A DNA stretch of 64,000 nucleotides from Chiloscyllium plagiosum. Taxonomy: Eukaryota. Under the pieces are notes generated by a model. The model did no database searches. It was given only the letters and a program-made list of their open reading frames with translations, and had not been told where the DNA came from. The translations under genes were made by a program, and so were the position numbers. Positions within the stretch are counted from its first letter, which is position 1. Every line of letters begins with the position of its first letter. The stretch lies in NCBI RefSeq assembly GCF_004010195.1, contig NC_057755.1, positions 4,746,155-4,810,154 of the forward strand. The letters are read 5' to 3'. Shown piece after piece: positions 1,940-63,400 of this stretch.

Positions 1940-2390
1940 CTCCCAGGACATACAGGTCCTGGGCCTCCTCTATTGCCTCTTCCTTATCACCCGACACCTG
2001 GGGGAGGAACGCCTCATCTTCCACCTCTTGACCCTCCAAACTTATGCAATCAATATGGATTTCACAAGTTTCCTCATTTCCCCTCCCCGACATTATCCCC
2101 GTTCCAACCTTCCATTTCAGCACCACATTCATGACCAATCCCACCTGACAATCTTCTGTTCCACCTACCTTCTACCCCCCTCCCCTCCGACCTATCACCA
2201 TTAACCCCACCCCATCTTCTTATGGCTCTGTCAGCCACCATCGCGCAGCCCGACCCCATGTGATTTATTTCTCCACCCCCTCAGCTCACAGCCTCATTAT
2301 TGATGAAGGGCTTTTCCCCGAAACGTTGCGTTTCTTGCTCCTCAGATGCTGCCTGACGTGCTGTGCTTTTCCAGCGCCATACTCTCGACA
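1940..2390 (+). mobile_element. PLE 3' end (GIY-YIG C-terminus plus terminal repeat with degenerate hammerhead)
   Basis: EERLIFHL..TLQ..INMDFTSF C-terminal motif at ~2005-2070; ttgatgaagggcttttccccgaaacgtt at 2300-2327 followed by the gatgctgcctgac tail. Confidence 0.75.
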
Positions 2391-3044
2391 GAAATAACAA
2401 CAGTAATAATTACAAAATGATAGCAACGGTGTTGCCTTTGCTCGCACACGTTATGTGAAACTTGTTGCTGGTCCTGAACAGATTGTGAACATGATATCTT
2501 CAACTTCAATTTAGGAACCAAACAGTCTACCTGAACTCCACTTATATGCCCAGTTGATGAGATAGATTAGAGGCAAAAGAAAAATAGCAGAACCGTTTAG
2601 CAAAGTTTACCATAACTCTGTGAAAATTCCAAGGATGATGAAATAGTAGGCAAACACAACACAATGATCAAGGAAACTGGTGATAATGGCATAGCTGGAA
2701 ATGTCGCTGCTGAGCAACTCAGCAGTATCATGATAGATGACAAAGAGGTGCCTCAAAGGCTCATGGTGCTCCAGGTAGAGAAATCTGGATTGCTGAGAGA
2801 GGTAAAGGATTCAATTTGGGAGGCCATTTACGGAAATTTTCCGGGTCTCACTGAACACAGGATTAATCCAGTGGTACCGGAGGATTGTCAGAGTGACACC
2901 ACCGTTTAAGAGGCGGACAAAGGACAACTCAGGAAACTACTGAACTCTCAGCTTGATATCAAAGCTGGAGAAACTGCTGCAGAACATAATGCAGGATAAG
3001 CTAATAAGACTTGTAGAGAAAAATAGGTTGGTACAAGGCAGTCA

Positions 3045-3290
3045 ATGGAGCGGCATGTTGGCACAGTGTTTTGCAGTGCTGTTTCCCAGTGACAAGGATC
3101 CAGGTCCGTTTCCAGCCTCGGGCGACTGTCTGCGTGAAGTTTGCACGTTATCCCCGTGTCTGCGTCGGCGTGTTCTGCGTCCTCCCACAGTCCAAATAGG
3201 GGCAGAGTCAGGGTGGATTAACCATGCTAAATTGCTCATAGTGTTCATGGATATGTAAGTTAGGTGCATTAATCAGGTTAAATCTCTGAT
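3045..3290 (+). mobile_element. HE1-like tRNA-derived SINE, diverged
   Basis: tRNA-like head (ggcacagtg..gacaaggatccaggtccgtttcc) and core gtttgcacgttatccccgtgtctgcgt shared with other copies. Confidence 0.75.
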
Positions 3291-3435
3291 GCAGTTTTGG
3301 AGAAGAAACACAGAGAGACAATACAGGCTGAATGGTACTAACTTCAGGGGAGTACAGGAGCAAAGGAATATCTGGAGTCAAGTGCATAATTCCCTGGGGG
3401 GTGGGGGAGGCACGTTTTAGCAGTTGTTAAGAAGG

Positions 3436-3752: not shown

Positions 3753-3759
3753 CCAAGGC

Positions 3760-4220: not shown

Positions 4221-4224
4221 TTTA

Positions 4225-5476: not shown

Positions 5477-6499
5477 TATGTGGGTTTATATTTCATGTGA
5501 GGTTTCTTAAGAGAGCAGGGTGTATACTTGAAAGTGATCAATTTAGAAGGTCACCGAGACAGGGTGGGAGAGTGGAACTACTGGGCAGTTCTTTCTAGAC
5601 TTTGTTCAGTCACGATGGGATCAATGGCCTCTACCTGTACTGTAAAGTTCTGTGACATTCTTACAATTTCTGAGGCCTTATTGAGGAATCTTTTCAAATT
5701 CGGCAGAAGTGATCAGCTGTGGCAGTGAGAAACGCAATATTGATGAGTGGACCCCATAACCATTGACATGTTACCCACTTCTTTCACAGAGTTAGATCAT
5801 CAGGGACGCGAACGAACAGGGAATTACTCATAAATCCGTTCGTAGGTGAACGGTTCATGGAGACGAACATGCAAGGTCTGAAAAATATGATCGACAGAAA
5901 CTCTGTTGTGGGTTTTACAGAGACCCTGTTGGGTTCAGTATCATTCCTTTTCCAATCACTAATCCGGACAATTAGATTAACTGACCTCGCGACATCCATG
6001 CAGAGATGTACGTGACTATGGGAAAAATGGGCTCAGAACAGGGGTTCTGGCTTTCAGTCCATGACTGTTGATTACCAGTTGGCGAGCTATACGTTCAGTT
6101 TCCTAATCTATTGAGTCACTGACCCGACTGAAAGAACGGTTTTTGAAAAAGCTCAGACAGAATGCACAAAAACTGTTGCTCCTGTCCCAGCAGGATATAT
6201 TGCAGCAATCAGTCAGTTAGGCTGTTTATTCTCAAACATCACTTCTGTCCCACTCTGACTCGACACTACATTCCCCATCAATACCATCCACATTTGATGT
6301 AAATGTGGACACCAATGCTGATGGGGAATCTTTGTTGAGGGTTTATGGTAAATGCAACACTTGTGCATGAGAATCACTCAGACTCACTGCTAGTCTGTCC
6401 TCTGGTACCTTTTGTTTTGGCATTTTCTTTAAAGTTGCTACTGGATACGTCTGGACAAGGTTGGGTTGATGGTCAATCTCTTTTCTTCGAGGTCGTGCC

Positions 6500-7404
6500 A
6501 TCACAAGTAACTGTAAACGTATATTTTGCCTAATAATTAACAGAATAATTGCTGTGAGTAGATATTTCAGAGTCCCTATACAAATGGTCTCTGAACTTGG
6601 ATTGAGTTGCCATGTACATGTGTTTGTGCAGCAATTGAGGTTGTGCAGCTGAAACCCAACGTGTTCGAAGATATCAGATGAATGATCACGAAAGTATTCT
6701 GCAATCAAAGAAATATAAGACATATACAAGCCACAAAAGTATGAAGCTTCTGGAAATAGTGAAGAGCAAAATCACATAATTTCCTTCTGCTCTGCATTTC
6801 TGGGTTACTGGGATTCTTGCCCTTGTTGACACTCCTCAGTCCTTTACGAACTCGACTTATTAATAAAATATGTCTGACTGTCAGTGCGTTGAACAATGCC
6901 ATTAACAGAAATGGGGGCATTGAGGTTAAAATTGTATCCAATCGAGAAAACGCCATCCACCCGGGCTCAGTATAATTACTGGGCTTTTCAGAACAGAATC
7001 ATGGTACATTGTCAATTTATTCTGCAGGTTCATATACAAAGTAGAAAGGAATATTTTTCACGAGTAGTAGAATGTCATTGCTAGAACCAAAGATGCAGTT
7101 TTCTCAGTACAATATTTAATTTTCATTTCCCGGCAGCAGATGAATACAAATTGATTCAAGCAGAAAGTGATAGTGAACCAGACAGAACAATCTGTGGCTG
7201 CACAACTGAGGACACTGAGAATGCTACAGACAGGGGTGATGTCCAAGAAACATAATGGGAAATAATGAATATTAATTTGACTCAGTATCACCTCGATAAT
7301 AAAGAGGAGTAGATTCGCCACTGCCATAGCGACGAGATAACATGTGATGCAGTTGCTCAGTCCACACTTTAGCCGATACAAGATTATAATCGCTATGAGA
7401 TTGG
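6500..7404 (-). pseudogene. GPR139-like GPCR pseudogene, exon 2 with several frameshifts
   Basis: Acceptor cttgcag then ANLIAIIILYRLKCGLSNCITCYLVAMAVANLL..PVC..DCSVWFTITF..ICC; FNALTVRHIL..NPEMQSRRK (6705-6956); VGFQLHNLNCCTNT (6343-6729) lie in different frames. Confidence 0.9.
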
Positions 7405-8309
7405 CTGCAAGATTGGGAGATAAAATAAATGAAATTAGTCACACAGGGAATTTCTGTTCATGAACCTACATTGTCTGTGTTGAATTTAGCATCTATAACT
7501 ATAGACTGAATACCATCAGATATTTAGAAATTTTAGTCACAGTTTGAAATCTTCTCAATATGATCTACTTGGATTATGAATTGAATTGGGATAGGGAGGG
7601 AGCAGCAGCGTCTCACCGTGGGAGGGGCCATACAGAAAGACATTGTGATGAGGTCGACTTATTCAAGTAATTATGATATTAAAAGCATTCAATCACCATT
7701 GCCTTCCCAGATCATGAAGCTATTTCTTGTTAGACAAAGATACAGTAGACCCCACTTACCCACGTTCCATGACCTACCGTGGAAGCCAAAAACCGCAGAA
7801 AGGTGCAAATCCATTCATTTAACTGAGAAAATTTCCTTCCCAGCAGCCCCCGGTCCCTCGTTCTGGAAGGTTACCTATAATATGTATAGGCCGCAGCAAA
7901 CAGCGGGAACCTGAAAGCACAGAAAACAAGTCTGTGGATATGGAGGTCGCTCTGTACTGGTGGTGATTTAACTTGAGGGCCATCACACATCAGGAAAGTA
8001 GACAGATTGAGAAGGTGAGTCCTTCATGTTAATCTCAGCTAGTGATGGGAATTGAACACACACTGTCGGCATTAACACTGCTTCACAAACTATCTTTTCA
8101 GCCAACGAAACTAAACCTTCACCCTACAATGGTGTTCGGTTCTACCTAGTTTCAAGGATTCACATTGACCTCTGGGGACTCAAGACACACAGCAAGTGGC
8201 AGCTAAAGGGAAACAAAATCAGGATTTTTAAACAAATCTCTTGTGTGACATGAGGAGATGGATTGGTGACGATTCTCAGCCACTTTCTGATTACCACGAA
8301 GTAAATACA

Positions 8310-10600: not shown

Positions 10601-10614
10601 TCTAAGGTATTACA

Positions 10615-12305: not shown

Positions 12306-12633
12306 TACTTATTTAGCAGGCCTGTCTGAGCAAGGTGTTCAGCTAGACTCTGTTGACTCAAAGGCTGATTTCTGATGCAGAAGAACACTAAACATGTGGG
12401 TTAAACTACCTCAAATCATCTCCTTCTTAAGAGAATCAATAGCCCTGTTTGCTGAGACCATGGTGACTACCACTTAACAACCTAAAAGAATAATGCTTTA
12501 GTATGAAAATCCCTCAGCAAAAGCAGTAAGCAAATAAATCTGAAAGAACTGCAAACGCTGTAAATCAGCAAGTTCAACATGGACAGCTGGAACAGCTCAG
12601 CGGTTCTGGCAGCATCTGTGTAGAGCCAGCAGT

Positions 12634-13890: not shown

Positions 13891-14020
13891 GCCCAAAACT
13901 GTGTTTTCTTAATTTTGTCTGCGACACCAGCGTGGGTTCATCTTTGCTAGGGAAGAATTCGAGCGCACAATAAGAGCAATCAGACCATCATGGTTCCTGG
14001 GGCGTAAAACTTATCGTGAA

Positions 14021-14130
14021 ACTTCTGAAGAAGGGTCAGACTCGCAACATTAACTGTTTCCCTCTTGACAGATGTTGCTGAGTTTCTCCAGTATTTTCAG
14101 TAGATTCAGTAGATTCCCAGCATCTGATAT
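14021..14130 (+). mobile_element. PLE-type terminal repeat with degenerate hammerhead core
   Basis: ttctgaagaagggtcagactcgcaacattaactg..cagatgttgctgagtttctccag. Confidence 0.55.
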
Positions 14131-15179: not shown

Positions 15180-16810
15180 GTGAGCTTGCAGATGACACCA
15201 ACATTGGAGGTGTAGTGGACAGCGAAGAAGATTACCTCAGATTACAATGATATATTGATCAGATAGGACAGTGGGCTGATGATTGGCAGATGGTGTTTAA
15301 TTTAGACAAATGTGAGGTGCTGCATTTTGGGAAAGCAAATCTTAGCACGACTTCCACACTTAATAGTATGGTCTGAGGACTGTAAGTTTCCTTACAGTAA
15401 TACTTAGAAGATCTTTGTGCCTCCTCCACAAACTAAGAAATGTGTATTGCATTTATCTTCTGCCTAAGAGGTTCAAGAGTGCAATTTCACTTCTGTTTGA
15501 AATGTCAACTGTTCCTGAACAAAGAGACCTTGGAGTGCAGGTTCATAGATCCTTGTAAGTAGGGTCACCGCTAGACAGGATAATGAAGAAGGAGTTTGGT
15601 ATGCTTTCCTTCATTGGTCAGAGTATTAAGTGCAGGAGTTGGGAGGACATGTTGCAGCTGTCCTCCAGGAGATTGGTTAGGCCACTTTTGGAATATTGTG
15701 TACACTGCTGGTCTCCCTCCTTTTGGAAAGATGTTGTGAAACTTGAAAGGGTTCAGAAAATTGTTCCAAGGATGTTGCCAAGGTTGGACGATATGAGCCA
15801 CAGGGAGAGGATGGATAGGGCTGGGGCTGTTTTCCTTGGAGCTTCAAAGGCTGAGAGGTGACCATTCAGAGGATGATAAAATCAAGAGAAGTATGGATAG
15901 GATAACTAGACAAAGTATCTTCCCTGGGATGGGGAAGTCCAGAACTAGAGGGGCATGGGTGTAGTTGAGAAATAAAAGAAATATAAAAGGCAACTTTTTC
16001 ACGCAGAGCGTGGTACATGTATGGAATGAGCTGCCAGAGAAAGTGGTGGAGGCTGGTACAATCACAACATTTAACAACCATCTGGATGGGTACATGAATA
16101 AGAAGAGTTTAGAGGGATATGGGCTGGGTGCTTGCAAATGGGAGTAGATCAGGTTGGGATATCTGGTCAGCATGGACGAGTTGGACCGAAGGGTTTGTTT
16201 CTGTGCTGTACATCTCTATGACTCTATTAATCAAGTTAAGGAACTTGGGGGCTGTTGCAGGACAGAGATACTTGGTGTGTAGGTTCACAGTTTCTTGAAA
16301 GTGGATTCGCAGGTGGACACGATAATGAAGAAGGCATTTGGTCCAGTTGCCTTTATTGATCGGTGAAACTGATGTAGGTTTTGTGAAGAGCTGAAAATGT
16401 GTTGCTGGAAAAGCGCAGCAGGTCAGGCAGCATCCAAGGAGCAGGAGAAATCGACGTTTCAGGCATGAGCCCTTCTTCACGGAATGAGGAAAGTGTGCCC
16501 AGCAGGCTAAGGTAAAAGGTAGGGAGGAGGGACTTGGGGGAGGGGCGTTGGAAATGCCATAGGTGGAAGGAGGCCAAGGTGACGGTGATAGGAGGTGCAG
16601 GTGAATTTGTGGCGGATATGGAAGGATCCCTTGGGGCCTTGGAGGGAAGTAAGGGGGGAGGTGTGGGCGCAAGTTTTGCATTGCAGGTTTTGTGAAGACG
16701 TGTTGCCAATGTACAGGACATTCTTTAGACCAGTTTTGGAAAATTGTGTTCAATTATGATCTCCTTGCAGCAAGAAGGATGTTGTGAAACTTGAAAGGGT
16801 ACAGAAACGT
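15180..16810 (+). mobile_element. CR1/HER1-like LINE fragments (two adjacent pieces, nested PLE insertion at 16390-16684)
   Basis: ADDTNIGGVVDS at ~15188; ORFs 15583-15861 and 15965-16147; tail ctctatgactct at ~16215; second piece 16240-16810. Confidence 0.88.
16390..16684 (-). mobile_element. PLE fragment (Zn-finger/GIY-YIG piece + hammerhead terminal repeat) with 14-bp TSD
   Basis: TSD aggttttgtgaaga at 16376-16389 and 16685-16698; rc encodes CKTCAHTSPLTSLQGPKGSFHIRHKFTCTS; rc has gtgaagaagggctcatgcctgaaacgtc. Confidence 0.88.
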
Positions 16811-16814
16811 GTGC

Positions 16815-18294: not shown

Positions 18295-18426
18295 GAAACG
18301 AGGAAATGAGGAGTGCAGATGCTGGAGAGTCAGGGTCGAATTTGATTCTGGAAAAGCACGGCAGATGAGGCAGCATGCGAGGAGCAGGAAAGTCTACGTT
18401 TTGGGCGTAAACGCTTCATCAGTTCT
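18295..18426 (-). mobile_element. PLE hammerhead terminal repeat, diverged
   Basis: rc ctgatgaagcgtttacgcccaaaacgtag..ctgctcctcgcatgctgcct; probable TSD tcattcatttta/tcattcctttta (18280-18291, 18427-18438). Confidence 0.75.
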
Positions 18427-19995: not shown

Positions 19996-21286
19996 TAAAA
20001 AATCTTGGAGGAGCCAATATTCCTCACGTTCACCATCCTCACCGTCACGTCGTGCCCCCACATTCATTTCAGCAAAATCTAAACACCGTTGCAACTTAAG
20101 TGATGTTGAACTGATCCTCATATTTGAAAGCCGCAGACTGGAAATGCTGTGACACAGCCGGCTCACTCTCAGATGTGCAGCGTTTTTCATTCATTGTATA
20201 AGGTATGCAACTAGAGATTTCAGCGCAATCTTGATTTCCTGCCTGAACTTGGACTGAGTTGCTGTGTAATATCATTTGTTTGTTTAGGAACTCAACCCCC
20301 ACAGCAATGTATCTGCATTCTTCAAATACTACTTCGGAATTTGTGCAGTCTAGTCCTTGAATGGCATAGTAGAAGTCATTCAGAAAAATTAACTACCAGA
20401 GGAGTGTCAATCTGGGGTATATTGGCGTGGGGCGGTGATTGAATATAAGTCTAACCTATAGAGAAGGAGCGAGGCATTGACTTACTTTCGATCTAACCAA
20501 CAGACAGAGAGATAGACGTTAACTGATGACAGGTCTGACAAACAGAGGGCTGGGTGAAGACTGATGGTCAGTCTGACCATGAGAGAGAGAGAGAGAGAGA
20601 GAGCACCGTTGCTACAGAAAAATATCTGGGGGATCACTTTCAAAACAAGGCAAAACTGAGGGAAACACAAACACACACACGCATGCACAAAACACACACA
20701 AACATACATAGATACACCACAGACACACAGACACATACACAGCATATGTTTCTATTCTAATATTAGTGAATATCAGAAAAAAAACAGATTAGTTGGATGA
20801 TGGTTTAGTCAGTGAAATCTATTTTCTTTCTGGGACTTGAATCCTGGACTCTCAAGTTAAAAATAATGAGACTGAAGACTGAATTAGGAAAAACTAAAAC
20901 ACTATTTGCTATTGAGATTGAATTATATCCAAAAGATGAAATTCGGGTGTTGAAAGGAGACAAGAACACCAAACCAAATGGGAAATGACAAGCTAAAAGT
21001 TTGGAAGAATAAATCAAAAAGGGGTGATGGAAGAAGAATGGCAAGAGAGCAAATAAAGTGACAAAGTGTGCAAAGTGCAAACTCGAGATTTTCATTCGCT
21101 GCTTTAACTTGAAAATATCATATTGTACTTCTTCTACCATCAACCTGCATATGTCCACCCCAAAACAGGCAGTTTTCATCTCAACGTGAGCATTTTCTCG
21201 TCAATCAGATGCTGCTGCTTGAAAGGCACAACAGGAGACCACATTTCTGAGTAATTCAGAAAGGTAAGCAAAGTTACATCATGGTG

Positions 21287-21488
21287 AAGTGTGGCGCTGG
21301 AAAAAAGCACAGCAAGTCAGGCAGCATTTGAGGAGCGGGGAGTCGACGTTTTGGGCATCCTGAGGAAGGGCTTACACTTGAAATGTCGACTCTCCTGCGC
21401 CTTGGACGCTGCCTGACCTGCTGTGCTTTTCCATCGCTACACTTTTCGATTCTGATCTCCAACATCTGCAGTCCTCATTTTCCTCCAA
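21287..21488. mobile_element. Fold-back pair of PLE hammerhead terminal repeats with 9-bp TSD
   Basis: Minus arm 21287-21358 and plus arm 21359-21486 are reverse complements over the gtcgac..ccagc core; TSD atcatggtg at 21278-21286 and 21489-21497. Confidence 0.88.
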
Positions 21489-21499
21489 ATCATGGTGCA

Positions 21500-33900: not shown

Positions 33901-35085
33901 TTGTATTTCATGTTAATAACTTTTCCAATTTCTAAAGTTTTGCATTTTCCGATTAATAAGTTTATGTTCTTCTGCTGAAAGGACAGTGGCAGCCTCATGT
34001 GGATATGTTCACTGATTAACAGCCATGATTACCAAATACAAAGATTAAACATAAAATTTTCCCAGATGTTGTCACTGTTGAATCTGAATTGGCCAGTATT
34101 ACTTGCGGCTGTTACCATAACACACACCATTCAGAAGTATTTTCCACAACACACCTTGAGTCTCTGGCATTAATGGGTAAAAACCACTTGACTGGTCGTT
34201 CAAATTGTTGTATACCATATCCCACAATCCATTCTTGAATCTGCCCCATTGCCGACATTTCTGAAACTTCTTCTTTGGGTGTGCCTTGCATGCTTTTTAA
34301 AAGCTGTTATAGACTGCAACTTGATTTTTCAGTTCCGATATGTAATTGTGATTTGTTTTTAACACATTTTCCTGTTTATTTTTGGCGCATTGAATGCATG
34401 GCACAGTGGATGATGACCTACTTCACCATATCAGGACAGCTCCATGAACGTTGAAACTGAACGCCAAGAATCACTGTGAAAGAAATTCTGTGGAATGACA
34501 CTAATTATGACGAAATTTCTTGACAACTGTGAACGACATCATTAACCAATCAGGATGTGCTGAAGTAAATTGATACAAAATACATGATCTCCCCCGATCA
34601 AACACGCTACAGCGCTGAAATAAACCCTTTGATGGCTGGAATGGAATTGAACGCCAAGTGGTTGACTTAATATTGTGAGCAATTTTGGTCCCATGCCCCA
34701 CGAAAGAGGTATTGGCCCTGGAGCGGGTTCAGAGGAGGTCCACGAGAATGAAAGGCTCAACATATGAGTAACGTTTGAGGACTCTCGGACCGTACTCGAT
34801 GATGGAGATCTGTGAGTGGGGCGCGCGGTCTGACTGAAACAGTCAGAATACTGAACAGTCTGTACAGAGTGGTTGTTAGGGATATGATTATATTGGCACA
34901 GAGGCGAGAACCCGAGGGCACAGCCTGAGATTAAAGGGATGATCTTTCACAACAGAGATAAGGAGAAACTTCTTTAGCCAGTGAGTAGTGAATGTGTGGA
35001 ATTAATCGCCACAGAAGCCTGTGGAGGCCAAGTCATTTAGTATATTTAAAACAGAAATACGTAAGTTGTTGTTTGCCAAGGGGAT

Positions 35086-35541
35086 TGATTCGAAATGTGT
35101 CAAGATCAGGTCATAACAGGGTAAAAACAAAGGACTGCAGACGCTGGAAACCAAATTCTGGAGTAGAGTGGTGCTGGAAAAACACAGCTGTTCAGGCAGT
35201 ATCCGAGGAGCAGTAAAATAGACTTGCTCAGTTTCCCCAATGTACCGAGCCTCAGGGCATCCTTGCCTGTAACGTATAAGAGACAATGTTGGCTGAGTCA
35301 CATGAGTACCTGCCACGTACATGGTGGGAGGTGTCCCCAAATGTAATGGTGGTATCCATGTCCACACTCTGGCACGTCTTGCAGCGCCTACCGTGACAGG
35401 GTTGTATGGAGTTTCCTGAAGAAGGGCTCATGCCCGAAACGTCGATTCTCCTGCTCCTTGGATGCTGCCTGACCTGCTGCGCTTTTCCAGCAACACATTT
35501 TCAGCTCTGATCTGCAGCATCTGCAGACCCCACTTTCTCCT
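35086..35541. mobile_element. Composite PLE insertion: minus terminal repeat + minus GIY-YIG piece + plus hammerhead terminal repeat, 10-bp TSD
   Basis: TSD ccaaggggat at 35076-35085 and 35542-35551; rc encodes RCKTCQSV and CPEARYIGETEQ. Confidence 0.88.
35413..35446 (+). ncRNA. Minimal type I hammerhead ribozyme motif
   Basis: CTGAAGA(35416-22) A GGGC tcat GCCC GAAA C GTC; predicted cleavage after C35443. Confidence 0.72.
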
Positions 35542-36750
35542 CCAAGGGGATCAAAGACTACGGGAAAACACGGGGAAATGGGTTAGAAAAACCTGTCAAC
35601 CATGATTGAATGGCAGAGCACTCGATGGGCTGATTGATGTAATTTCTACTCCTATCTCCGATGGTCTTTGGTCTTAAATGATTCCTCTCTAACAACGGAT
35701 GTGTGATGTTTGGTGGCTCATTGTAATATTGCACAGATAGTCTGTAAGAATATAAGACCATAATAAAGGAGGCCGTCCGTCTCCTTCAGCCAACTCCAAC
35801 ATTCAATAGGATCTTGTTGGATCTGACAATTCGTGGGTCCACTTTCCAAGCGATTCCCCAAAAGACTTGATTCCCCGACTGACCAATAATATGTTTCTCT
35901 CATCGTTAAACACCCAAGAGGATGCAACCCCCACAGTTTTTTTCCCCCTGCATTATGACCACTCCCCAGTTGGCAACCTACATGTGTGGCACAGTAATTA
36001 CATTGCATCGTGTTCACCTCTTGCACGACATTGTTAACCAACTGGAACCTGACTATTGCAGAACTGCTAAATCACAATTCCTGTACGAATTACAAGACAG
36101 TTCTAGCCATGAAAGATACTTTAGTGTGGACGAACGGGTCCTCATTCTTGAGGGTATCCTTAAATGGAAGCTGCTCTCAGAAAGGCAATGCTCTATCCTT
36201 TCATCAGAAAGAAAATAGCTAGAAACAATTTGTGTTTCAATCTGTGATTCCCACCTCCTGGGAAATCTGTGCTGGTCTTCTGCTGATTTCAAAGGCAATA
36301 AGGAAGGAAAAGCTTTATCTCTTTAATCTACTAAATACTAAGAAAATCTATAATGTTTAATTTTAACCAGGATTATTTACTTTTCTACTTTGTATCTAGG
36401 CATCCTTGTATGTAGGATGGCGCCGGGAATGGAGATGTTGTCCACTTTTCGCTGTACTTCTGTATTTCTGTACTTGAGTGTATGTGACAATATAATCTAA
36501 TTGTAATTCTCAGGAAAATAGCGGCATTTTATTCTTCAAAATGTATAACTGTGAAATAACCCTCAGAGGAATATTGTTACTTTGCTGCTTCTCAGATTGC
36601 AGCAATTGGTGCAGTTAGTGATCCAAACATATTTATTCTCTCACGGGGCATTTAGCTTCTCAATAAAATGAGGTTGTGTTGACGTTATCATTATTTTTCG
36701 GCAGACAGAATCGTTGTCTCTCCTCTCACAGACGACCTGACTGGGACAGA

Positions 36751-41039: not shown

Positions 41040-41249
41040 GAAGGCAAGTGCTGTCATTCCCTTACATCTGCTGCTTCTAGACAGTAGTAGCTGTGAGGGT
41101 GACAGGGAACTGTCCGAAGAAACTTGGTGAGCTGCTGCACTGTGTCTTGTAACTAGCACGCACTGCCCGTTACTGAGTAAGACTGGGGGAAATGAGGGTT
41201 TGCAAATGTGGTGGCCATCATGTTCGCTGATGTAGCCTGAAATAAAGGC

Positions 41250-41380
41250 AAAGTATTGCAAATGCTGGATATCTGCAACAAAGAAAGGAAATGTAGGATA
41301 AACTCCACATGCCTGGCAGTTTATGTGGCGAGAGAGAGAAAAGTTAAGGTTTCGGGTCTGGAATGACACTTCTTCAGAAT
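41250..41380 (-). mobile_element. Older PLE-type terminal repeat with hammerhead-like core (paralog 55005-55135)
   Basis: rc ttctgaagaagtgtcattccagacccgaaaccttaac. Confidence 0.6.
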
Positions 41381-41704
41381 TTTCTTTGGTTCTGAATGGA
41401 GTCGAGCTTCGTGAGTTTCATTGGAGCTGCATGCTTTCAGGCAAGTTGGAAATCTTCTACAACACTCTTGACTTGTGCGTGGCGATGTTGGAAATTCGTT
41501 GGAATGGTGTGTTTTTTTCACAGCAGGATTCCTGGCCCCTGTCACATTGTATAAGCAACAATACCTGCGTGGTTTATCCAGGGCTGTTTTGGTTTCAATG
41601 TTAATCCTCGGTATGTTGATAATGGTGGCAATCTGATTGAATATCAAGGATGGTGGTTCAAAGTTCTTTTGTTGGAGATGGTGATTGTGTGACACTTGTG
41701 TAGA

Positions 41705-42193
41705 AAGTTTGTGAGAAGATTTGTAGCTCGGGTGCTCGTTGTAGTGGGTCTGTTCGCCGAGCTGTTGCAGACATTTCGTCCCCTGTCTAGGTGACATCCT
41801 CAGTGCTTGGGAGCCTCCTGTGAAGCGCTTCTGTGATCTTTCCTCCGGCATTTATAGTGGTTTGAATCTGCCGCTTCCGGTTGTCAGTTCCATCTGTGGA
41901 TGAGTGCCATGCCTCTAGGAATGCCCTGGCTGTTCTCTGTTTGGCTTGTCCTATAATAGTAGTGTTGTCCCAGTCGAATTCATGTTGCTTGTCATTTCTG
42001 CGTGTGTGACTACTAAGGATAGCTGGTCGTGTCGTTTCGTGGCTAGTTGGTGTTCATGGATGCGGATCGTTAGCTGTCTTCCTGTTTGTCCTATGTAGTG
42101 TTTTGTGCAGTCCTTGCATGGGATTTTGTACACTACATTGGTTTTGCTCATGCTGGGTATCGGGTCCTTCGTTCTGGTGAGTTGTTGTCTGAC
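41705..42193 (-). mobile_element. PLE 3' fragment (GIY-YIG + terminal repeat with hammerhead), 6-bp TSD
   Basis: ORF 41951-42151 TNVVYKIPCKDCTKHYIGQTGRQLTIRIHEH; TSD tgtaga at 41699-41704 and 42194-42199; empty site at ~55450. Confidence 0.93.
41767..41806 (-). ncRNA. Minimal hammerhead motif of the second PLE family
   Basis: rc gca CTGAGGA T GTCACC tagaca GGGGAC GAAA T GTC tgc; related degenerate copy at 1862-1901 (+). Confidence 0.6.
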
Positions 42194-43561: not shown

Positions 43562-43850
43562 GAAACTTTATTGCTGGAACAGCACAGCAGGTCAGGCAGC
43601 ATCCAGGGAACAGGAGATTCGACGTTTCGGGCACAGGCCCTTCTTCAGGAATGAGCAGAGAGTGTTCAGCAGGAGAAGATAAAAGGTAGGGAGGAGGGAC
43701 ATGGAGGACCTGCATATCCTCGGTGGAGTGGGGGGGGGGGTTGAAATGCTGTGCTACAGGTTGGTTGGGTTGGTTCGTCCGGGTGGCCCAGAGGTGCTCT
43801 CTGAATCGCTCCGCAAGTAGGCGGCCTGTTTCCCCAATATAGAGGAGGCC
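43562..43850 (-). mobile_element. PLE fragment with hammerhead terminal repeat
   Basis: rc has GLLYIGETGRLLAERFREHL (GIY-YIG) and the terminal repeat; absent at paralogous site ~56695; flanked by agtt. Confidence 0.88.
43617..43652 (-). ncRNA. Minimal type I hammerhead ribozyme motif (best copy)
   Basis: rc: attc CTGAAGA A GGGC ctgt GCCC GAAA C GTC gaat; 4-bp stem I and 4-bp stem II. Confidence 0.78.
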
Positions 43851-44658
43851 AGTTCTCCTTCCATCAATTTAACACTTTCACTCGAGGACTGCTGTTATCC
43901 CTTTTCATGAGCAACTCGAAAGTCAAGAAATTATGGTTCCTACTCCGAAATGTTCCCTCTCTGAAACTTCACTCACGTGTCCGAGCTCACTTACAAAAGT
44001 AGGTCCAGTATAACCCCTTCCCTGGTTGGACTGTTTGCTTATTGTGTAAAAGAAACCCTCCTGAACGTTCCTTACAACTTTTTCCCATCCAAGCATATAG
44101 CACGAAATGAGTCCCAGTCAATGCAGCAGAAGTTAAAATTACGCACCATAACAGTCATGTCGTTTTGACATCTTTCCAAAACCTGTGTGCATATTCTTTC
44201 TTCAATCTCCCGCTGGCTGTTGGGAGGTCTATAATATACCCCCGCATTGAGATTTCACCTTCTCGCTTCCTGAGTTCTAACCAATTTGCTTCGCTACACG
44301 AGCCCTCTGATCTTCCCTCAGTACAACTGTGAGTTACCCATTTACCAGTAATGGATCTCCACCACCCATTTTGCATCCCTTTTTATCTCACGGGAAACAT
44401 CTAGGTCCTGAGACGTTCAGCTGCCAATGCTGTCCTGGTTTCAATCAAGTCTTTGTAATTGCAATGATGTCATAGTTCGAAACACTAACCAAAGCTCTGA
44501 GTTCATCTAACTTGCCAATTGTATTTATTGCATGAAACACATGCATTTCAGACCACTTCCCCTGTTCATTTCAACAGCGTTTCCTGCCTTCGCTTGTTCT
44601 TTTTCGTGGTTGCCTTGGTTTCTATCTATCCTTCAATTCCTGCATCTACTGCTCTACT

Positions 44659-44750
44659 CTATTCCTGAAGAAGGGCTTATGCCCGAAACGTCGATTCTCC
44701 TGTTCCCTGGATGCTGCCTGACCTGCTTCGCTGTTCTAGCAACACATTTT
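44659..44750 (+). mobile_element. Stand-alone PLE terminal repeat with intact hammerhead core
   Basis: attc CTGAAGA A GGGC ttat GCCC GAAACGTC at 44661-44692; flanking repeat ctgctctact at 44649-44658 and 44751-44760; empty site at ~57665. Confidence 0.88.
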
Positions 44751-44849
44751 CTGCTCTACTGTACTGCTTGCCACCCACCGTCACACTCATTTGAATCTTC
44801 CCCAACCAGTCTCTAAAGCAGCTCCCCAAGGGCATCAGTCCCGGTCCTG

Positions 44850-45891: not shown

Positions 45892-46344
45892 ACTTTTCTG
45901 GCAAATTACCACATTTACGAGTCCCGTAACGGTTCTCATGTGCTCGTATGCGTCCCATGTCCGACCTCTATGTTGCTCTTATCCCTATTGCAACTTTAAC
46001 TTTATTTCTTTTCTTCATTAACTGTACAATAATCATGAAAAATCTATTGAACCCTTCTGTGGAGCTGTCAGCACCATATGCTTCCATTAACATATTTCAA
46101 TCATTATAGTTTTCATTTCTCGATTATTTATTTATTCTGTTCATCTATTCTTTCAAAGTATGCCTTTATTTTATTCTGGATTGCTTAAGTCAATAACATC
46201 ATTCTAATCTTTCACCCTATATAGTGTAATTTCGTTCATATGTTGATCTGAGGTAGTTAGTGTCATTTAGCAGACATATTAAGATGACACCTTGGTTGTG
46301 AGTCAAGTCATGAAGAGGTGTATCTTTCTTTAATTTTCTTACAG

Positions 46345-47249
46345 TTAACTCTGTCGGAATTGTGATTTTGAATCGAGGCCATTGTGGGCTCTCCACATGC
46401 ATCACTCGCTATTTGCTGGCAATGTCGACAGCAGATCTACTTCTCGTCATCCTTAACGTCTTATTCGACCGAATTAACATTCTTTTCTTCCCAGTTAATT
46501 TCTTATTCATCACTCCTGTCTGTGCCTCGAGAGTTGTTCTGTACCTTGCAGCCTTGGACTGCTCAGTTTGGTTCACAGTCGGTTTCACATTTGATCGGTT
46601 TGTAGCAATTTGTTGCCAGAAGCTGAGAGCGAGATATTGTAATAAGAGAACTGCATTTGTGGTCATAATAACTGTGACTGTGGTTAGCTGTTTGCGGTCA
46701 ATTACTTGGTATTTTGTGTTTATTCCATTATTTGTTATTGACAATGTGCCATGGTTTTGTATCGCAATACCAGACTATTACACATCATTATTTTGGAAAG
46801 TCTATGTATGGATTGATACGATAATTACACCGTTACTTCCAATCGTATTGATTTTTATATTGAATGCTCTGACTGTCAGGCGTATTATAACAGTCAACCG
46901 CATCCGCTGCCGCCTTCAGATCCATAGAAGTCGGCAGAATAATTCTGACCCAGAGGTGGTAAACCGGAGAAAATCCATCGTTTTGCTCTTTGCATTGTCT
47001 GCCAATTTTACACTATTTTGGGTTGCATATGTCGTCCGCACTTTAAACTGGAAAGAAATAAACTATAATTATGAAGACATGACTTTTGATGATCCAATAT
47101 TTGTCTTTCAAGAAATTGGATTCATGCTACGCCTTCTGAGTTCCTGCACCAACACGTGCATTTATGCTTTAACACAAACAAAATTCAGAGAGGAGTTAAT
47201 CAATGGAGCAAAATATCCATTTTCTAGAATACTTAAGCTGTGGAAATAA
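46345..47249 (+). CDS. GPR139-like class A GPCR exon 2 (TM1 end to C-terminus); spliced protein 324 aa
   Basis: Polypyrimidine + ttacag acceptor; open 905 nt; ADLL (TM2), PVC, FDRF (DRY), PWFC (ECL2), NALTVR, RRKSI, CTNTCIY (NPxxY position), KFREEL helix 8. Confidence 0.95.
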
Positions 47250-53290: not shown

Positions 53291-53850
53291 CACCGGCTGC
53301 ATTTAAAATACTACGCGACCCACGTCCCAGTTACATTATACCCCCCTCCCGAATTGGCAACCTATGTAAGTGGCACCATTAAAAAAAACCTTACATCCTA
53401 TTCACCTGTTACACAACATCATTAAACATCTGGAACCTGAGACAGCAGCACTGCCAAATCATAGTTCCTGTCTGAATTATAAGGCAGTTCTAGCCAGGAA
53501 AGGTATTTTAGTGTGGAAGAACAAGTCCTCATTCTTGAGGGCACTTTAAATGGAACGTGCTCTCAGAAAGGCAATCAGAAAGAAAAGGGCCCGAGACAAT
53601 CTGTGTTAGATTCTCACGAACTGGGATACCTGTCCCAGTGTTATGTTGATTTCAAAGGCAATGAGGAAGGAAAAGCTTTATCTCAGTATGGCATTTACAT
53701 ATTACTAAGAAAGTCTGTGCTGTTTAATTCTAACTCGGTTTCTTTAGTTTTCTACTTTGTATGTGGGCATCCTTGTATGGAAGATGACGTCGGGAATGGA
53801 GATATTGTACACTTTTCGCTGTCCTCCTGTACTTCTGTACTCGAGTACAC

Positions 53851-53927
53851 TGCCTGACCTGCTGCGCTTTTCCAACAACGCATTTTTCAGCTCTGCTCTC
53901 CAGCATCTGCAGTCCCCACTTTCTCCG
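53851..53927 (+). mobile_element. PLE terminal-repeat 3' part without hammerhead
   Basis: tgcctgacctgctgcgcttttcc..cagcatctgcagtccccactttctcc flanked by acac; empty site gagtacacgtgacaat at ~25930. Confidence 0.8.
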
Positions 53928-54271: not shown

Positions 54272-56984
54272 GTAAGTATATAAATGCAGCTATGTTTGTG
54301 TAAACCTATTTAGCTCCACTCCCCCATTCTTCATTGAAATTTGATGGAGTTTCCTCGGCTTTGGTTCATTCTAACCTTTTGCATTTCTAGTAGTTTCACC
54401 AGGAGTTGATTTTTACTGTAGTTTCCTTCCATCTGCATAATCAGGTTTAGCAACAAATGTTTTACAGAGTGTTTAATTGCAATTCAGGGTAGGCTGAGAC
54501 AGCATTGATTGACAATCCTGAGTTACAATTGAGATGGTGGTGGTGAGCTGCTTTCTCAAACCACTGCAGACCAATTGGTGTATAGAGTAATCCAGGGTGG
54601 AATCAGACTTTTCGATTTAACTCGTCTCTGCCGTTTCCTAAAATTAACTATTCACATTTGCCAGCACTTGACTCATATCCCGCGAAACCTTTCCTAATCG
54701 TGCCGACATCCAACTGTGTTTTAAGCGATTCAGCAAAAATGAACGAACCGTGACGTGTTTCCAAGCCAGGAAGGTGAGTGGCTTAAAGGAAACTTGCAAG
54801 TGCTGTCATTCCCTTACATCTGCTGTTTCTGGACAGTGGTAGCTGAAAGGGTGACAGGGAACTGTCTGAAGAATCTTGGTGAGCTGCTTCAATGCATCTT
54901 GTAAGTGGCACACACTGACTGCTGTTACTGAGTAATACTGGGGGAAATGAAGGTTTGTAAATGTGGTGGTCATCAAGTGCGCTGATATTGCCTGAATAAA
55001 GGCAAAGTTCTGCAGATCCTGGATATCTGCAATAAACAAGCGAAAATGTTGGATTAACTCGGCACACCTGGCAGTTTATGTGTAGAAAGAAAGAAACGTT
55101 ATGGATTCGAGTCTGGTATGACTCTTCCTCAGAATTTTCTGTGATCCTGAATGGAGTCGAGCTGCATGAGTGTCATTGGAGGTGCATCCATCCGGGCAAG
55201 TTGGAAGTACTCCATCACACTCCTGACTTGTGCTTTGAAGACGTTGGGCATTCGTTGGGATGGTGTCGTTTCCAAGCAGGATTCCTAGCCTCCGGCACAT
55301 TGCAGTAACAACAACACTTAAGTGGTTAATCCAGGGCTGTTTTGGTTTCAATGGAAATCCTCAGCATGCTGATAACGATGGAAATCTAATTGCATATCAA
55401 GGAGGACGGCTCGAATTTCTTTTGTTGGAGACTGTGATTGCGTGACACTCGTATCGATCAAATGGTATCTAATTATTGCCAATAGGCCATTAGAAATCAG
55501 AAATACGAGCATACGTAGGCAGTTCTGTACATAACTTCTGCTCTGTCATTCAATTATGACTAGACTGTTTCCAAACAGCATTCTCACACCTTCTCCCCCT
55601 AAGTATCTATTCCCTTACTCACCAACAATCTATCTATTGCCATCTTCAATACACTCACTGACATTTTCTCCACAGCCCTCTGTGGCAATGAGTTCTGCAG
55701 ATTCACCATCCTCTGGCTGAAAAAAAATCCTTCTCATCTCAATTCTGAAGGGGCACCGCTTCAATTTGAGGCTATGCTTTTGGGTTCTAGTCTCTCCTAC
55801 AGCGGAAACCTCTGCTCCATGCCCATTCCATCCATCCGCCCAGTGCTCCTTAAATTTTATCAGATGCCCCTCATCATTCTAAACTTGATCCAGTAAAGAC
55901 ACCGAGTCCTCAACCAGCTCTCATGCTACAATCGCTTCATCCCATGGATCATTCCTGTAAAACTCCTCTGAACCTGTTCAAGTTCAACACACCTTTCTAT
56001 TGGCACTGGTCCTAAAAACGCTCATGATGGCTTGTATAAAGTATTAAATATCTTCTGAAGTGTTCATAAAACTTTCACTTTCATCAGGTGTATGCCAATT
56101 TCATTTTCCACATAGTGCACTCCAAGTTCTACATTTGAGATTGTTGCAATAATTTTCTCGTCATTACTAGTATTGAAGTATATTTTTTTCTGACTGCTGA
56201 AGATTGAGTGGCCCCATGTTTAATTTTTGTTGTTTTCCAAGAGCAGTGAGGAGCAAAAGATGTAAAAATATTGTTCTACGTTATCAAACACAGCAGTGAA
56301 AAATAACTTCAATTCTGAACCATGAGGTTAGCACGACCGTGTTGCCTTCATATCATGAATGCAGCGACCCTGGCTCCCTATCGCTGTGCGGTAGCCTCGT
56401 TAACCACTGAGGCATCCTGTGACACACACCCACGCATTTTTTTGGTTTCTGTATACTTTTGTCTATTTCTCCTCTCTACTTCAAAGATTCAATTTCTCAA
56501 TGTGGTTCTCAACACCTTGTTCTTGGATTTCTGTTGTTCTTCTGTGAACAGATTTTTTTTTCACAGTCCAAATATCAAGCATGGTGGTATGTTAATCGTC
56601 TACCATTTGTAAGACTCCCACATGTCCGTTCGCATTCATCCTCAAACAGCCACTTCCAAACAGAATTCTACACTACCTGCCTACGAGTGTTGTATTTCTG
56701 CTTCCAACAATTTAACACGTTCACAGGAGGACTGCTGTTATCCCTATCCATGATTGACTTAAAACTCAAGAGATTATGGTTCCTGCTCCCGAAATGTTCC
56801 CCCTCTAAAACTTCACTCACCTGTCCGTGCTGATTTCCCAAAAGCAGGGCTAGTATGACTCTTTCCCTGGTTGGACTGCTTCCATATTCTGTAAAAGAAT
56901 TCTCCTGAATCTTTGTTACAACCTCTTCCCATCCAAGTCCCGAGGACGAAGTGAGTCGCAGTCAAGATGGGGGATTTTGAAATT

Positions 56985-57146: not shown

Positions 57147-58292
57147 TGTCCACCATAATAGTCCTGCTGTTTTCAAAACGTTCTGCGTCTTGCCAAAATC
57201 TGTGTGCATATTCTCTGTTCAATTTCCGTCTGGCTGTTGGTAGATCTGTCGCTGCATTGAGATTTCACTTTCCTATTCCTGAGTTCTACCCAATTTGCTT
57301 CACTGCACGAGCCCTCTGCTGTATCCTCACCCATAACTGCTGTGAGATTCTCATTTATCAGCAATGGATCTCCTCCACCCCTTTTGTACCCTTTCTATTA
57401 CACCTGAAACATCTAAAACCTGGGACAATCAGCTGTCAATCCTTCCCTGCTTTCAACCAAATCTGTCTAATTGCAATGATGTCATAGTTGAAAACACTAA
57501 CCACAGTTGTGAGTTCATCTAACTTGCCAATTATACTTCTCTCATTGAAACACATGCATTTCTGGCCAGTTCCCCTGTTCTTTTCAACACCGTTTCTTGC
57601 CTTCTCTTGTTCTTTTTCGTGTTTGCCTTAGTTTCTATCTATCTTTCAATTACTGCATGTACTGCCCTACTCCACTGCTTAACACACACCACCCCCCACC
57701 TTCCCCCACCCCGTCACATCAGTTTGAATCTTCCCCAACCAGTTTATAAAGTAGGTCCCCAAAGGCATCAGTCCCGGTCCTGCCCAGGCGTAACCCGTCC
57801 GAAATATTCCACGATTGAGAAAGAGATATTCAGCTTGCTGTTGGTGTTGCAACATTTCAACAATTACGTCGGCAGTGACCATTCTGAGATAGGTGTGTAC
57901 ACAGACCATGACCCTTTAAAGTTTTTGGAAAAATGTAAGTTTCAATATTTCAGACCGTGTTAAGGTGGACCTCATTATTGCAGTCATTCCGTTTGAGAAC
58001 TATGCATAAGGCAGGATGAGAGAACATCTTTGCTGACTTTGGGGAAGGGTGGCGCAAGTGTTTGGTGGCAGAAAAAGAAAATTGACTAAAATACGCCACA
58101 GTAGTGAACGTTTGCACGCTCAGAGTCAATCTATTGTTGTGCACAAATTGAGTAAGATTAAAAGTTATTAAAAATCAACGTATATTGATGTGTTACTTCA
58201 TGGAGACAGTTATGATGATATTCGGGCTTCAAGAGGTGAAATTTATCATTAGATTTTTTTGGAAAAGATTTTTGAAGACAGAGGTAACAAGA

Positions 58293-59722: not shown

Positions 59723-60464
59723 ATATCTGTTGAAAGCCCTTGAAGTATACTGCTTGTGAAATCTTGAGGACTTTTTAATTAAAATGCTGGACTATTGAAG
59801 CAGCCTGAATGATTGGGGCAAGCTCTTATTCAAATGCGACTTCCAGTTTTAGCTTTTCAGTAACATCAGTTATTTTTACAAGATGTGGAAGCTGTTTTGT
59901 TTCTGTTTTGGTTGCATCTAAAATCAGGGGGGTTCTCTGCCTGCTACCAGAGTTGCATTGAGGCAATTTTTAAACTGAATTTTCCCCTCTGCAATGTGTT
60001 TATAGCATGTTACCATATTGGAAAGGTTCCTATAGATTTACCTAATCTATATAAAAAAAAAGACTATGCTTCAATTCTGGTAAGTTGGTCAATTGAATTG
60101 CATTTGGAACACGAGACCTGGCATCTGTCTTTAAAATAAGAAAATGTTAGTGTCAGGCTATCTTTTGAATATATTGTGCCGAATGTTTGGTCTGGGCAAT
60201 AACACTTTTCTGGCAAATTACCACCTTTACCGAGTTCCATAGCGATTCCTATGCGCTCGTACACGGACCGTGTCTTGTTTCTATCTTGTTCTTCTCCTTA
60301 TTACCACGTTCATTTAATTTATTTTCTTGATTAATGGGACAATAACCATGAAACATCTACAGAACCCAACAAGCATGACATACTTGTGTTAGCATAGCTC
60401 AATCATGATAATTATCGTTCCTCGTTTATTTATTTATTATGCTCATCTATTCGTTCAAAGTATT

Positions 60465-63400
60465 GATGACACAACATCATAGCTAAAAGGGTTGGAGAAG
60501 AAGTACTCATTTATTTTTACTGCATGTGGACTACCAATAGAGATACAGTCAGATGAAGGATCAAACGTCTTATCCAAACTATTCAAGGAGGTTTTGGATA
60601 GCTTGAGCAGAAAACAATTCATATCTACTGCGAACCTTCCAGAATCGCAGGCAGCGCGAGAAAGGTGGCATCAAACATTAAAGACCATGTTGAGGGCCAA
60701 TGATCAGGACTATCAAGATGATTTGGACAACTGAGTTCCATTTGCGCTTTTTGCAATAAGAGATGTACTGAATGAATCGACCACATTCAGTCCATTCGAA
60801 TTAATTTCTGGACATGAAATAAGAGGACAGCTAAAATTGGTAAAGGACAAATGAATAACTCAGAATTTAGAGACCACATATTTGGAGTATGTGTAAAACT
60901 TTATAGAGCGAGTAAATAGAGCTGGGTCATTGGCTAGACCGCGTTTAAAAGTATCCCAGCATACACTGAAAAAGCAAGCGGGCAAGAAATCCCACGTTTG
61001 CCTTTGGGGATAAGGTATTGGTGTTACTTCTAGTAATAGGTGAACCTTTAACAGCACGGTTTAGTGGACCTTATCAAATCGAGAGGTAATTGAGTGAAGG
61101 GAACTTCTTGGACTCCAGACAGGAAAATTTCACAGAGTGTGCTCAAAAGGTATTTTGACAGGGAAGGAAAGCAAGAGAAGGCGTCAATAATGACAACCCG
61201 GAAGGAAAAACCAAATTCAGAAGATTCTGAATTGGACATTCGTAAAATCAAATTGCATAATGAGGAAGTTATCATAACTTGCGATAAATTATTGAGTTAT
61301 CTTCCACAGGAAAAGTGAAATGTACTGAAACAGTTTGTACTGTCGCATGGAGAGATATGTGGAAAAAAACTGGAAAGTACTAACCTAATTGTGCATCATG
61401 AAGATGTAGGAGATGCTGTTCTGATTAAACAACATCCTTATAGACATAACCATCTAAGGCTGGTGCAGGTTCAGAAGAGTGAAGAACGGATGTTCCAAGA
61501 TGGCATTATCGAATTGAGTCACAGTGACTGGAACTCACCCAAAGTCATGGTGCCAAAGCCACATGGTACCCCAAGGTTATGTGTGGACGATTGCAAAGTA
61601 AGTGCCGTCACAAAGACTGATGCATATCCAATTCCGTGGTTGGAGGAATGTGTCAAAAAGGTGGAAAAAATGTTTACATTTCTAGGTTGGACTGGCTCAG
61701 AGGCTACTGGCAGGTACGTTTGTTACAAAGAACAAAGGCAATTTCGGCTTGCAGATAATGCCAAATGAAGTAAATTAGTTAAAAGTCATGTCATTTGGTA
61801 TGAAAACGCTCTGTCCATATTTCAGAAGTAACTAATAAGGTTATGGACGGATCTCCAACTGCTGCAAATATGTTGCTGGAAAAGCGCAGCAGGCCAGGCA
61901 GCATCCAAGGAGCAGGAGAATCGACGTTTCGGGCATGAGCCCTTCTTGAGGAACGTCGATTCTCCTGTTCCCTGGATGCTGCCTGACCTGCTGCGCTTTT
62001 CCGGCAACACATTTTCAGCTCCGATCTCCAGCATCTGCAGACCTCACTTTCTCCTCGAGGATCTCCAACCTGCGTTGTGTACATTGATGACCTGGAGATT
62101 TTTAGTCACTCATAGAAGGAACATTTCCACCATCTACTGGACTTCTTCAATCGACTTCAGAGGGCAGGCTTGGGGGTAAACCTAGCTAAAAGTGAATTTG
62201 CCAAAGCCCAAGTCTCTGACCTGGGTGATGTTATTGGACATGGACAAATAGCCCCACGGGATGTGAAAACGAACGTAAATGGTGGGTTTCGCGCACTTTC
62301 AATGAAAAGAGCAGTACTCCAGTTCCTGTGATTGGGTCTGTTTTACCGAAAGTTTGTGACAAATTTTAGCCGAATGGCTGCTCCACTCACCGAATTGTTG
62401 AAAAACCAAGGAATTTCAGTGGACAGCATTCGACAGCCTAAAAACTGTGTTAGTCACTGCCCCAATGTTAGCCAAACCTGATTTTGTGAATCCTTTCAAG
62501 TTGGCTATTGATGCCTGTGATGTAGGTGTCAGTGTGGTTCTCTTGCAGGAGGGTGACGAGGGAATAGAAAGACCCATTGGGTATTTTTTCAGGATGTTGA
62601 ACGTTTATCAACACAAATATTCTACAGTTGAGAAAGAGACTTTGAGCTTGGTGTTGCCATTAAGACATTTCGATGTTTATTTTGCCAGCAACGCATCTGA
62701 TGCAATCGTATACATTGATAATAATCCGTTGACATTTGTGGAGAAATTTAAGGAAAAATGCCTGATTGTAGCGATACAGCTTGTTGTTGCAGTCATCCAA
62801 TTTGACATTTGTGCAAGGAGCGCATCATGAACATATGGTTGCCAATGCACTGGCGGGACTCGATGATATGCGAAGGTGTTTGCTGGTGGGTGTGCCACGG
62901 CCTGAATTCGAAATTGGTTGTGCATGCGTTCATGTGTATAGTCATGTGTATAGTGTGTGCATGTGTGTGTGTGTGTGTGTGTTTCAGCATACTAACCATT
63001 TTTTGAGGGGTTTTAAAATGAAGCCATCTTTGCACATCAATGGTTCTATTTTTAAGGTGGGAGGTGGCACAAAGGTAGTCCTTTGTTTAAAAAAAAATTG
63101 TTTTTTTCCTTCTCTCAAGGATACCGTGCCCTTGTTTTCTTTTCAGAGGTGACGTTAAACATCCCAGGCTCCGATTAGGCTGAAGTGGTACAGAGATGAA
63201 AAGGGTACTGGGAGACCTTTTTTGCTTATATGCAAACAAATCGGTCTTCAGACCAAAGCTTGCAAGTTTTAGAAGCAACATGTATAATGAAAGGGGAGTG
63301 GTCAGTTCAGAAAGCTGAAGTCTTGTTTTTAGTCAGTTCGGTAGTGCTGTGTGTGAAGAAGGGCTGCTGAAGACAGTCAGTTGAGACTGGAACATCTCTC

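Follow-up and report, generated by a model that had tools for sequence, protein, structure and literature searches.

We found that a short repeat scattered through a 64,000-nucleotide (nt) stretch of the Chiloscyllium plagiosum genome (NC_057755.1, positions 4,746,155 to 4,810,154; the window) is the pseudo-long terminal repeat (pLTR) of a Penelope-like element (PLE), that it carries a minimal hammerhead ribozyme motif, and that its short copies pile up at one upstream boundary, where an extra G is common. These copies of 95-135 bp are probably cDNAs that were primed inside the 5' leader and ran off at the capped start of uncut RNA. A preliminary description of the window had presented the repeat as a dispersed, short mobile unit flanked by target site duplications (TSDs) and mobilised by a PLE; its observation is confirmed and its interpretation partly supported. 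The element itself is a very abundant but ordinary PLE. Positions within the repeat are given on a scale on which hammerhead C3 is 0 and the predicted cut lies between +27 and +28.

Exact-pattern searches of the 3.56-Gb genome, from which all genome counts are taken, returned 37,586 matches to a 31-nt core pattern and 53,805 matches to a 31-nt pattern farther 3'; the reversed control of each returned none. Copies of 2.3 kb that bear an open reading frame (ORF) end in the repeat. Loci L092 and L093 contain reverse transcriptase (RT)-GIY-YIG frames of 749 and 684 amino acids (aa), which end ~170 bp before the repeat, match the RVT_1 profile (E=1.2e-8 and 2.7e-6) and the GIY-YIG profile (E=3e-4, just below the curated cut-off), and visibly possess a DKG motif and a CX4CxxC linker. 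Judged by these two motifs alone, the element fits the Neptune type (PMC8557442). In rare copies, the 36-nt tail of the repeat runs on into the conserved body (296 exact junction matches). Locus L208 is a natural tandem of pLTR, body, endonuclease, and pLTR that is internally deleted and has an ATG at +162, and in a second tandem, L181, all 100 translated codons are open. Since genomic copies end in the repeat and the ORF is preceded by it as a leader, it is the pLTR of an RT-GIY-YIG PLE. Mobilisation by PLE proteins and a very high copy number had both been proposed correctly. The flanks of the fetched loci hold 58 arms in 218.7 kb, although transposon flanks may be enriched. The host genome is also rich in CR1-like long interspersed element (LINE) pieces, and a search of a phage collection gave no match.

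Three intact minimal hammerhead motifs are present in the window (C3 at 35416+, 44665+, and 43648-); with the same descriptor, 60 Markov sequences yielded a mean of 0.13 motifs and a maximum of two. The motif has the CUGANGA/GAAA/NUH core, an extra base before stem II, and a palindromic 15.2-16.2, and it is, as stated in the preliminary description, a minimal type I hammerhead in a PLE terminal repeat that matches the published features of such motifs (PMC4209133). The stem II loops TCAT, TTAT, and CTGT of the intact copies, the perfect ATTC/GAAT stem I at 43617-43652, and the cut site, where C35443 corresponds to C17, had likewise been read correctly; self-cleavage after C17 is predicted from the sequence. 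Stem I of the commonest subfamilies contains a U.U mismatch, the cores at 2300, 16390, 18422, 21358, and 61953 are mutated, and the copy at 53850..53926 lacks the core, as had been claimed. Rfam has no hammerhead match for the window, and the folding z-scores of four motif stretches of 44-45 nt range from -0.05 to -1.2. Both results are what one would expect of a motif that lacks helix III and whose stem II has 4 bp; folding energy alone lends the hammerhead no support.

Three hammerhead families in the fetched DNA differ in their stem letters but keep the pairing and the palindrome, although the descriptor itself requires stem II pairing. Their stems I are ATTC/GAAT, CAC/GTG, and CCA/TGG, and their stems II are GGGC/GCCC, GGAGC/GCTCC, and GTTACC/GGTAAT; a pattern for a fourth family found no match. 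An excess conservation of core and stems, which had been anticipated, is not significant in single copies (10/1671 mismatches in the motif versus 25/2385 downstream, p=0.17). CpG decay affects the motif in the young family (29/522), and the differences between subfamilies fall in loop II and downstream. The absence of significant motif conservation within the young family, together with CpG decay, is consistent with neutral decay of the copies and selection on source elements.

Copy ends were mapped in 97 of the first 100 listed matches to the 3' pattern, whose match is independent of the ribozyme. The 3' ends form two classes (45/97 and 52/97) that lie ~36 nt apart and differ by the PLE tail. 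Six of the 97 copies adjoin N and were dropped from the 5' count, leaving 91. Fifteen of these begin upstream of -9, 50 at -9..+3, 15 at +4..+11, four at +12..+26, four at +27..+30, and three beyond. Among non-inverted copies, 20/34 start at -9..+3, and in the independent flank sample, 16/58 arms start at -8..+2 (both by hand count). The pile-up of 50/91 bears out the earlier view that the copies are not simply random 5' truncations, and the distributions in both samples indicate that truncation is neither random nor at the cleavage site. Cleavage-defined 5' ends were considered and ruled out (4/91 at +27..+30). Many short arms (53/79) abut an inverted arm.

The pile-up could also reflect priming at the 3' pLTR followed by ordinary 5' truncation, if the RT stalled on leaving a folded (dimeric or protein-bound) hammerhead and microhomology fixed the junction. 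PLEs typically have 5'-truncated copies and inverted arms (PMC8557442), the pile-up coincides with the edge of stem I, many junctions at -3..0 use microhomology, and a smaller cluster of ends exists at -477..-479 (6/28 endonuclease-anchored rows, with the bait beginning there). We nevertheless consider stalling quite unlikely, since it does not predict the extra G described below, which is absent at internal truncation points (7/46), the motif folds weakly, and a second hammerhead family stops 5 nt past stem I.

Several copies (L031, L040, L048, L051, L052, L055, and L059) start at -477..-479 in the endonuclease region without a G excess; this is possibly a second truncation hot spot, but the bait begins there and selection could explain it. 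Loci L171 and L179 share an identical inversion junction in two subfamilies of 89% identity, pointing to recurrent microhomology-driven inversion.

Within the pile-up, 5,010 copies stop at A(-4). In the first 100 listed, the preceding base is G in 55, T in 23, and A in 22 (hand tally; two of the 100 are substitutions within longer copies), and this frequency of G exceeds the 27% expected (p=3e-9). An extra G that arises by cap copying has been discussed for LINE-1 and for the RT of avian myeloblastosis virus (PMC4038843). The 65 fetched A(-4) loci have the G in 35 cases, in 17/35 solo and 18/30 inverted copies. TSDs of 9-16 nt flank 14 of these 35 solo copies, and where a single base separates a TSD of at least 9 nt from A(-4), it is G in 5/6. 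Internal truncation points served as a control and have G in 7/46, versus 8.4 expected (seven inverted rows of 53 were dropped; about six of the 46 retained rows reflect small internal deletions or duplications and not insert ends). Copies ending at -3 have G in 12/100 (hand tally) but have little value as a control, since microhomology with the inverted arm prevails there.

A(-4) is the A of CTCATT in the pLTR, which contains an initiator-like TCATT; CTCATT fits the initiator consensus. A splice acceptor at -4 was ruled out, as no AG precedes it. The second hammerhead family (7,837 matches; in L274, an RT fragment lies upstream on the same strand) has its stop at A(-8), in the sequence ACAATC/ACTATC, 5 nt beyond stem I, and a TATAAA starts exactly 30 nt upstream of A(-8). 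The base before A(-8) is G in 11/14 listed copies that stop there (hand tally) and in 8/11 after self-templated palindromes are removed (p=0.002). Promoters within pLTRs have been described before: Penelope has its promoter and start site inside the pLTR (PMC2377424), and a rotifer pLTR contains a TATA/initiator-like pair (PMC3846280).

A defined but uncapped 5' end, formed by RNA processing or by a cut of the element's own endonuclease at the ATT from -4, could give the same boundary if the RT added a non-templated base. The anole endonuclease favours 5'-ATT-3' in its own pLTR (PMC11167929), the sequence from -4 is ATT, and many fold-back junctions are centred on -4. Against this, the second family shows the same G at a stop that is not ATT and lies 30 nt below a TATA box, and no splice-acceptor AG precedes -4. 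We regard an uncapped end as unlikely.

From the anatomy of the copies, their pile-up, and the G, all directly observed, we infer capping, the use of particular priming sites, and jumps. Transcription of rare tandem masters would begin at the A of TCATT, driven by a promoter in their upstream pLTR. The GIY-YIG domain would nick the target, and the RT would start at +89..96 or +119..133, cross the uncleaved ribozyme, and put a C opposite the m7G cap. The cDNA would then be joined to the target on its own or head-to-head with a second cDNA, which forms a fold-back, or a template jump would lead into the 3' untranslated region (UTR) or the ORF. The hammerhead would be kept in source elements and be active only as a dimer or with the help of a protein; because the cap would be lost by a cut at +27/+28, its role is suggested to be regulatory and not in template making. 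Hammerhead cleavage is not needed in vitro (PMC11167929). Solo copies contain neither the promoter region upstream nor any sequence past the tail and are therefore probably dead on arrival. A boundary that is exact to the base and has a cap-like G, seen in thousands of copies, and a second family that stops under a TATA box, offer a testable clue to PLE replication. Run-off at the cap predicts a start site and a capped, uncut template, and it would explain single minimal hammerheads without a new class of element.

Several points weigh against this explanation. The copies sampled belong to young subfamilies and lie near the beginning of one chromosome, the pile-up is spread over 13 nt, and copies ending at -3 (6,289) are as numerous as those at -4, under slightly different filters; the -3 endings are largely due to microhomology with the inverted arm. 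The main family has a weak TTTTAT at -32 in place of a TATA box, and about half of the 100 listed copies of the second family extend farther upstream. Among the A(-4) copies, 45/100 lack the G, and any blunt RNA end could receive such a G by non-templated addition. Because most long "open frames" cross N gaps, no single master that is both intact and full-length was identified. The RNA data are also without a peak: in run X20, a single-cell poly(A) library and thus ill suited, read ends do not accumulate at any position, and there is no cleavage peak.

On L208:1270-2400, X20 has 3,032 reads in both directions, 94% of which continue into unlike sequence, and they read as passive read-through of scattered copies. 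Because it is a single-cell poly(A) library, X20 is silent either way on a capped start. The pLTR at +46..+75 (e.g., window 35462-35491) contains CTGAC, a pyrimidine tract, and CAG, which resemble a branch point and a 3' splice site; X20 reads contain no splice joint that matches this site.

The short copies had been proposed to behave like a separate short interspersed element (SINE)- or retrozyme-like unit, that is, a short RNA with its own source copies that a PLE amplifies in trans. This is unsupported, since the repeat is the pLTR of ORF-bearing copies, and short and long copies share subfamily haplotypes. In a small sample with few sites (79 short and 17 long copies), the short/long counts are 27/11 for TTAT/TC, 11/2 for TTAT/TT, and 4/1 for TCAT/CT. 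A separate unit would agree with the excess of short copies over ORF-start junctions (53,805 versus 296 exact matches, to different patterns), with the SINE-like defined 5' end, and with the vertebrate pLTR-derived retrozymes that have been reported (bioRxiv 10.64898/2026.07.22.740005). It would also agree with a ~1-kb rearranged non-autonomous derivative that occurs at 33 places genome-wide (L096-L098 and L301-L308 among them), on many contigs and at 97-100% identity, with one fold-back junction in which an inverted arm that extends to -203 is joined to -629. Two of its copies, L304 and L306, have a further deletion in common. This suggests a small amplified non-autonomous form, with recurrent microhomology or assembly effects near N gaps as the alternative, and since the derivative has apparently been amplified to 33 copies, short non-coding masters are still conceivable. 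Internally deleted tandem masters such as L208 could act as templates in trans.

Head-to-tail monomer arrays were seen neither in the window nor among the 97 anchored copies, which are solo, head-to-head, or ORF-linked. This, together with the shared haplotypes, 5' ends that avoid the cleavage site (4/91), the neutral CpG decay of the motif, and X20 reads that look like two-strand passive read-through, makes a separate unit improbable, the least probable of the readings weighed here. Non-LTR retrozymes (LTR, long terminal repeat) are similar in their type I hammerhead, lack of coding capacity, relation to pLTRs, and TSDs of >4 bp, and they form head-to-tail tandems of 150-450 bp that are processed to monomers and circles (PMC7229834; bioRxiv 10.64898/2026.07.22.740005). 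The Chiloscyllium copies, in contrast, occur as solo units or head-to-head pairs, are shorter, and do not have the cleavage site as their boundary.

Previous work has described pLTR hammerheads of the minimal type, single motifs at scattered positions, the tail, and the inverted arm; the extra G and the TATA spacing are added here. We found no description of PLE copies whose ends cluster at a start site and carry an extra G in a search conducted mostly outside the subscription literature, and supplements may list the family. Endonuclease-bearing (EN+) PLEs, of Neptune type by motif, have the same RT with DKG, CX4CxxC linker, C-terminal GIY-YIG domain, and pLTR, and the same optional tail of 30-40 nt, adjacent inverted 5'-truncated arm, and TSDs of ~9-16 nt (PMC8557442, PMC3846280). 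Most insertions here, in contrast, contain only the leader part of the pLTR, with one start site and an extra G, a pattern not found in the papers searched. Metazoan PLE hammerheads share the minimal type I form with CUGANGA, the extra base before stem II, G10.1-C11.1, the palindromic 15.2-16.2 (ACGU), the short stem I, and the lack of helix III, whereas the main subfamilies here have a U.U mismatch in stem I, and stem II has 4 bp (PMC4209133). That study reports mostly single scattered motifs, interpreted as probably truncated PLEs, and ~4,000-9,000 copies in coelacanth and Xenopus, compared with at least 37,586 exact matches here. In the anole Poseidon element PAc, two internal RT starts define the tail, and uncut RNA is the template (PMC11167929). 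No RNA reads begin at the cleavage site in PAc or here, where one ill-suited run (X20) was available. The ORF of PAc starts within the hammerhead, whereas the long ORF here starts from +162, after the tail, and the cited sections of PMC11167929 contain no description of the run-off at the RNA start that we propose.

Minus-strand strong-stop DNA of LTR elements is a short cDNA that is primed near the 5' end and runs off at the cap. It is possible, although we lean somewhat against it, that PLEs make a similar intermediate by priming in the leader and copying over the uncut hammerhead to the cap, followed by integration or a jump to the 3' part of the RNA. The comparison is an analogy, as priming here would be target-primed without a tRNA, and the short product would integrate alone. 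The extra G is likened to the cap-derived G at the 5' junction of full-length LINE-1 copies (PMC4038843). If PLEs do form it, the strong-stop-like cDNA would rebuild the pLTR, for whose regeneration no obvious mechanism has been seen (PMC2377424), and would explain the fold-back arms. Scattered vertebrate minimal hammerheads would then be a fossil map of PLE transcription starts, and the ribozyme a decapping switch.

The window contains 13 repeat arms at 10 sites, based on blastn and tblastn comparison (Table 1). Sequence matches bear out the repeat at all nine sites listed in the preliminary description, which had overlooked one old arm. TSDs of at least 9 nt, claimed for several copies, flank 5/10 sites (16390, 21287, 35086, 44661, and 61861), against a chance rate of 9/1949, and the claimed empty paralogous sites were found for the copies at 43560, 44661, and 53850 in the duplicated 13-17-kb units of the window. 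Two other claims stand in part: the repeat at 2300 is real but terminates a longer, old copy in which the GIY-YIG C-terminus is also present, and of the attached GIY-YIG pieces, that at 43707-43851 belongs to the element, while that at 35282-35412 is from a different PLE family (31% aa identity) and antisense to the arm at 35413. An Rfam match to the MIR844 hairpin at 21278..21497 is spurious and stems from the fold-back pair.

Table 1. Copies of the repeat in the window, with strand, structure, and flanking features.
Position	Strand	Feature	Details
1912..2385	+	Old 5'-truncated PLE copy	GIY-YIG C-terminus 1911-2087, 3' UTR, decayed hammerhead ~2300; blastn 66-74% to L093/L208, tblastn 56%
12549..12616	-	Old pLTR arm (+45..+111)	Overlooked previously
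16376..16698	-	Insertion with 14-bp TSD	Endonuclease cysteine linker piece (16591-16681) joined to 3' UTR and pLTR (16387-16604); hammerhead core with 1-nt insertion
18300..18422	-	Older short copy, C3 (0) to +123 with tail	Mutated core; without clear TSD
21278..21497	both	Head-to-head fold-back pair	- arm 21287-21358 (+14..+84); + arm 21358-21488 (from -2, with tail); 9-bp TSD
35076..35551	both	Composite insertion with 10-bp TSD	Minus-strand piece of other PLE family (pLTR arm 35131-35223(-), GIY-YIG 35282-35412) and young + arm
35413..35541	+	Young short arm, -3 through tail	Intact minimal hammerhead core 35416-35443; predicted cut after C35443
43558..43851	-	Internally deleted copy	GIY-YIG piece (43707-43851) joined to pLTR -60..+90; hammerhead 43617-43652 with 4-bp stem I; 98-99% identity to ORF-bearing L093; empty paralogous site near 56696
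44649..44760	+	Solo short copy from A(-4) exactly (44661)	Intact core from 44665; no tail; 10-bp TSD; empty paralogous site near 57672-57700, with extra indels
53850..53926	+	Short copy +49..+124, without hammerhead	Empty paralogous site 36479-36484
61849..62069	both	Head-to-head fold-back pair	- arm 61861-61953 (-3..+89); + arm 61952-62058 (+22, with tail); 11-bp TSD

In the composite insertion, the single TSD pair of 35086-35541 also encloses 45 bases that were assigned to neither PLE family; a cross-family template jump or a nested insertion is possible. Another PLE family is present at 1280-1902(+) and ~41700-42150(-), with GIY-YIG remnants, its own minimal hammerhead with a longer stem II, and a TATA-like box ~50 nt upstream of C3. 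Inside the paralogous units, one more repeat (26682-26860, 41197-41405, 54951-55160 (-), and 14018-14065) contains a decayed CTGAAGA...GAAA-like motif and is possibly an older hammerhead-bearing PLE end. The 13-17-kb paralogous units also contain single-exon frames that by eye resemble G protein-coupled receptors (32681-33412, 46314-47249, and ~6343-7438(-)), of which that at 46314-47249 is open over 311 aa. Short frames at 57523-57963, 61319-61768, and 62402-62830 look, again by eye, like remnants of Gypsy-type RT/RNase H, and window positions 1-570 are a tandem minisatellite with units of 10-12 bp.

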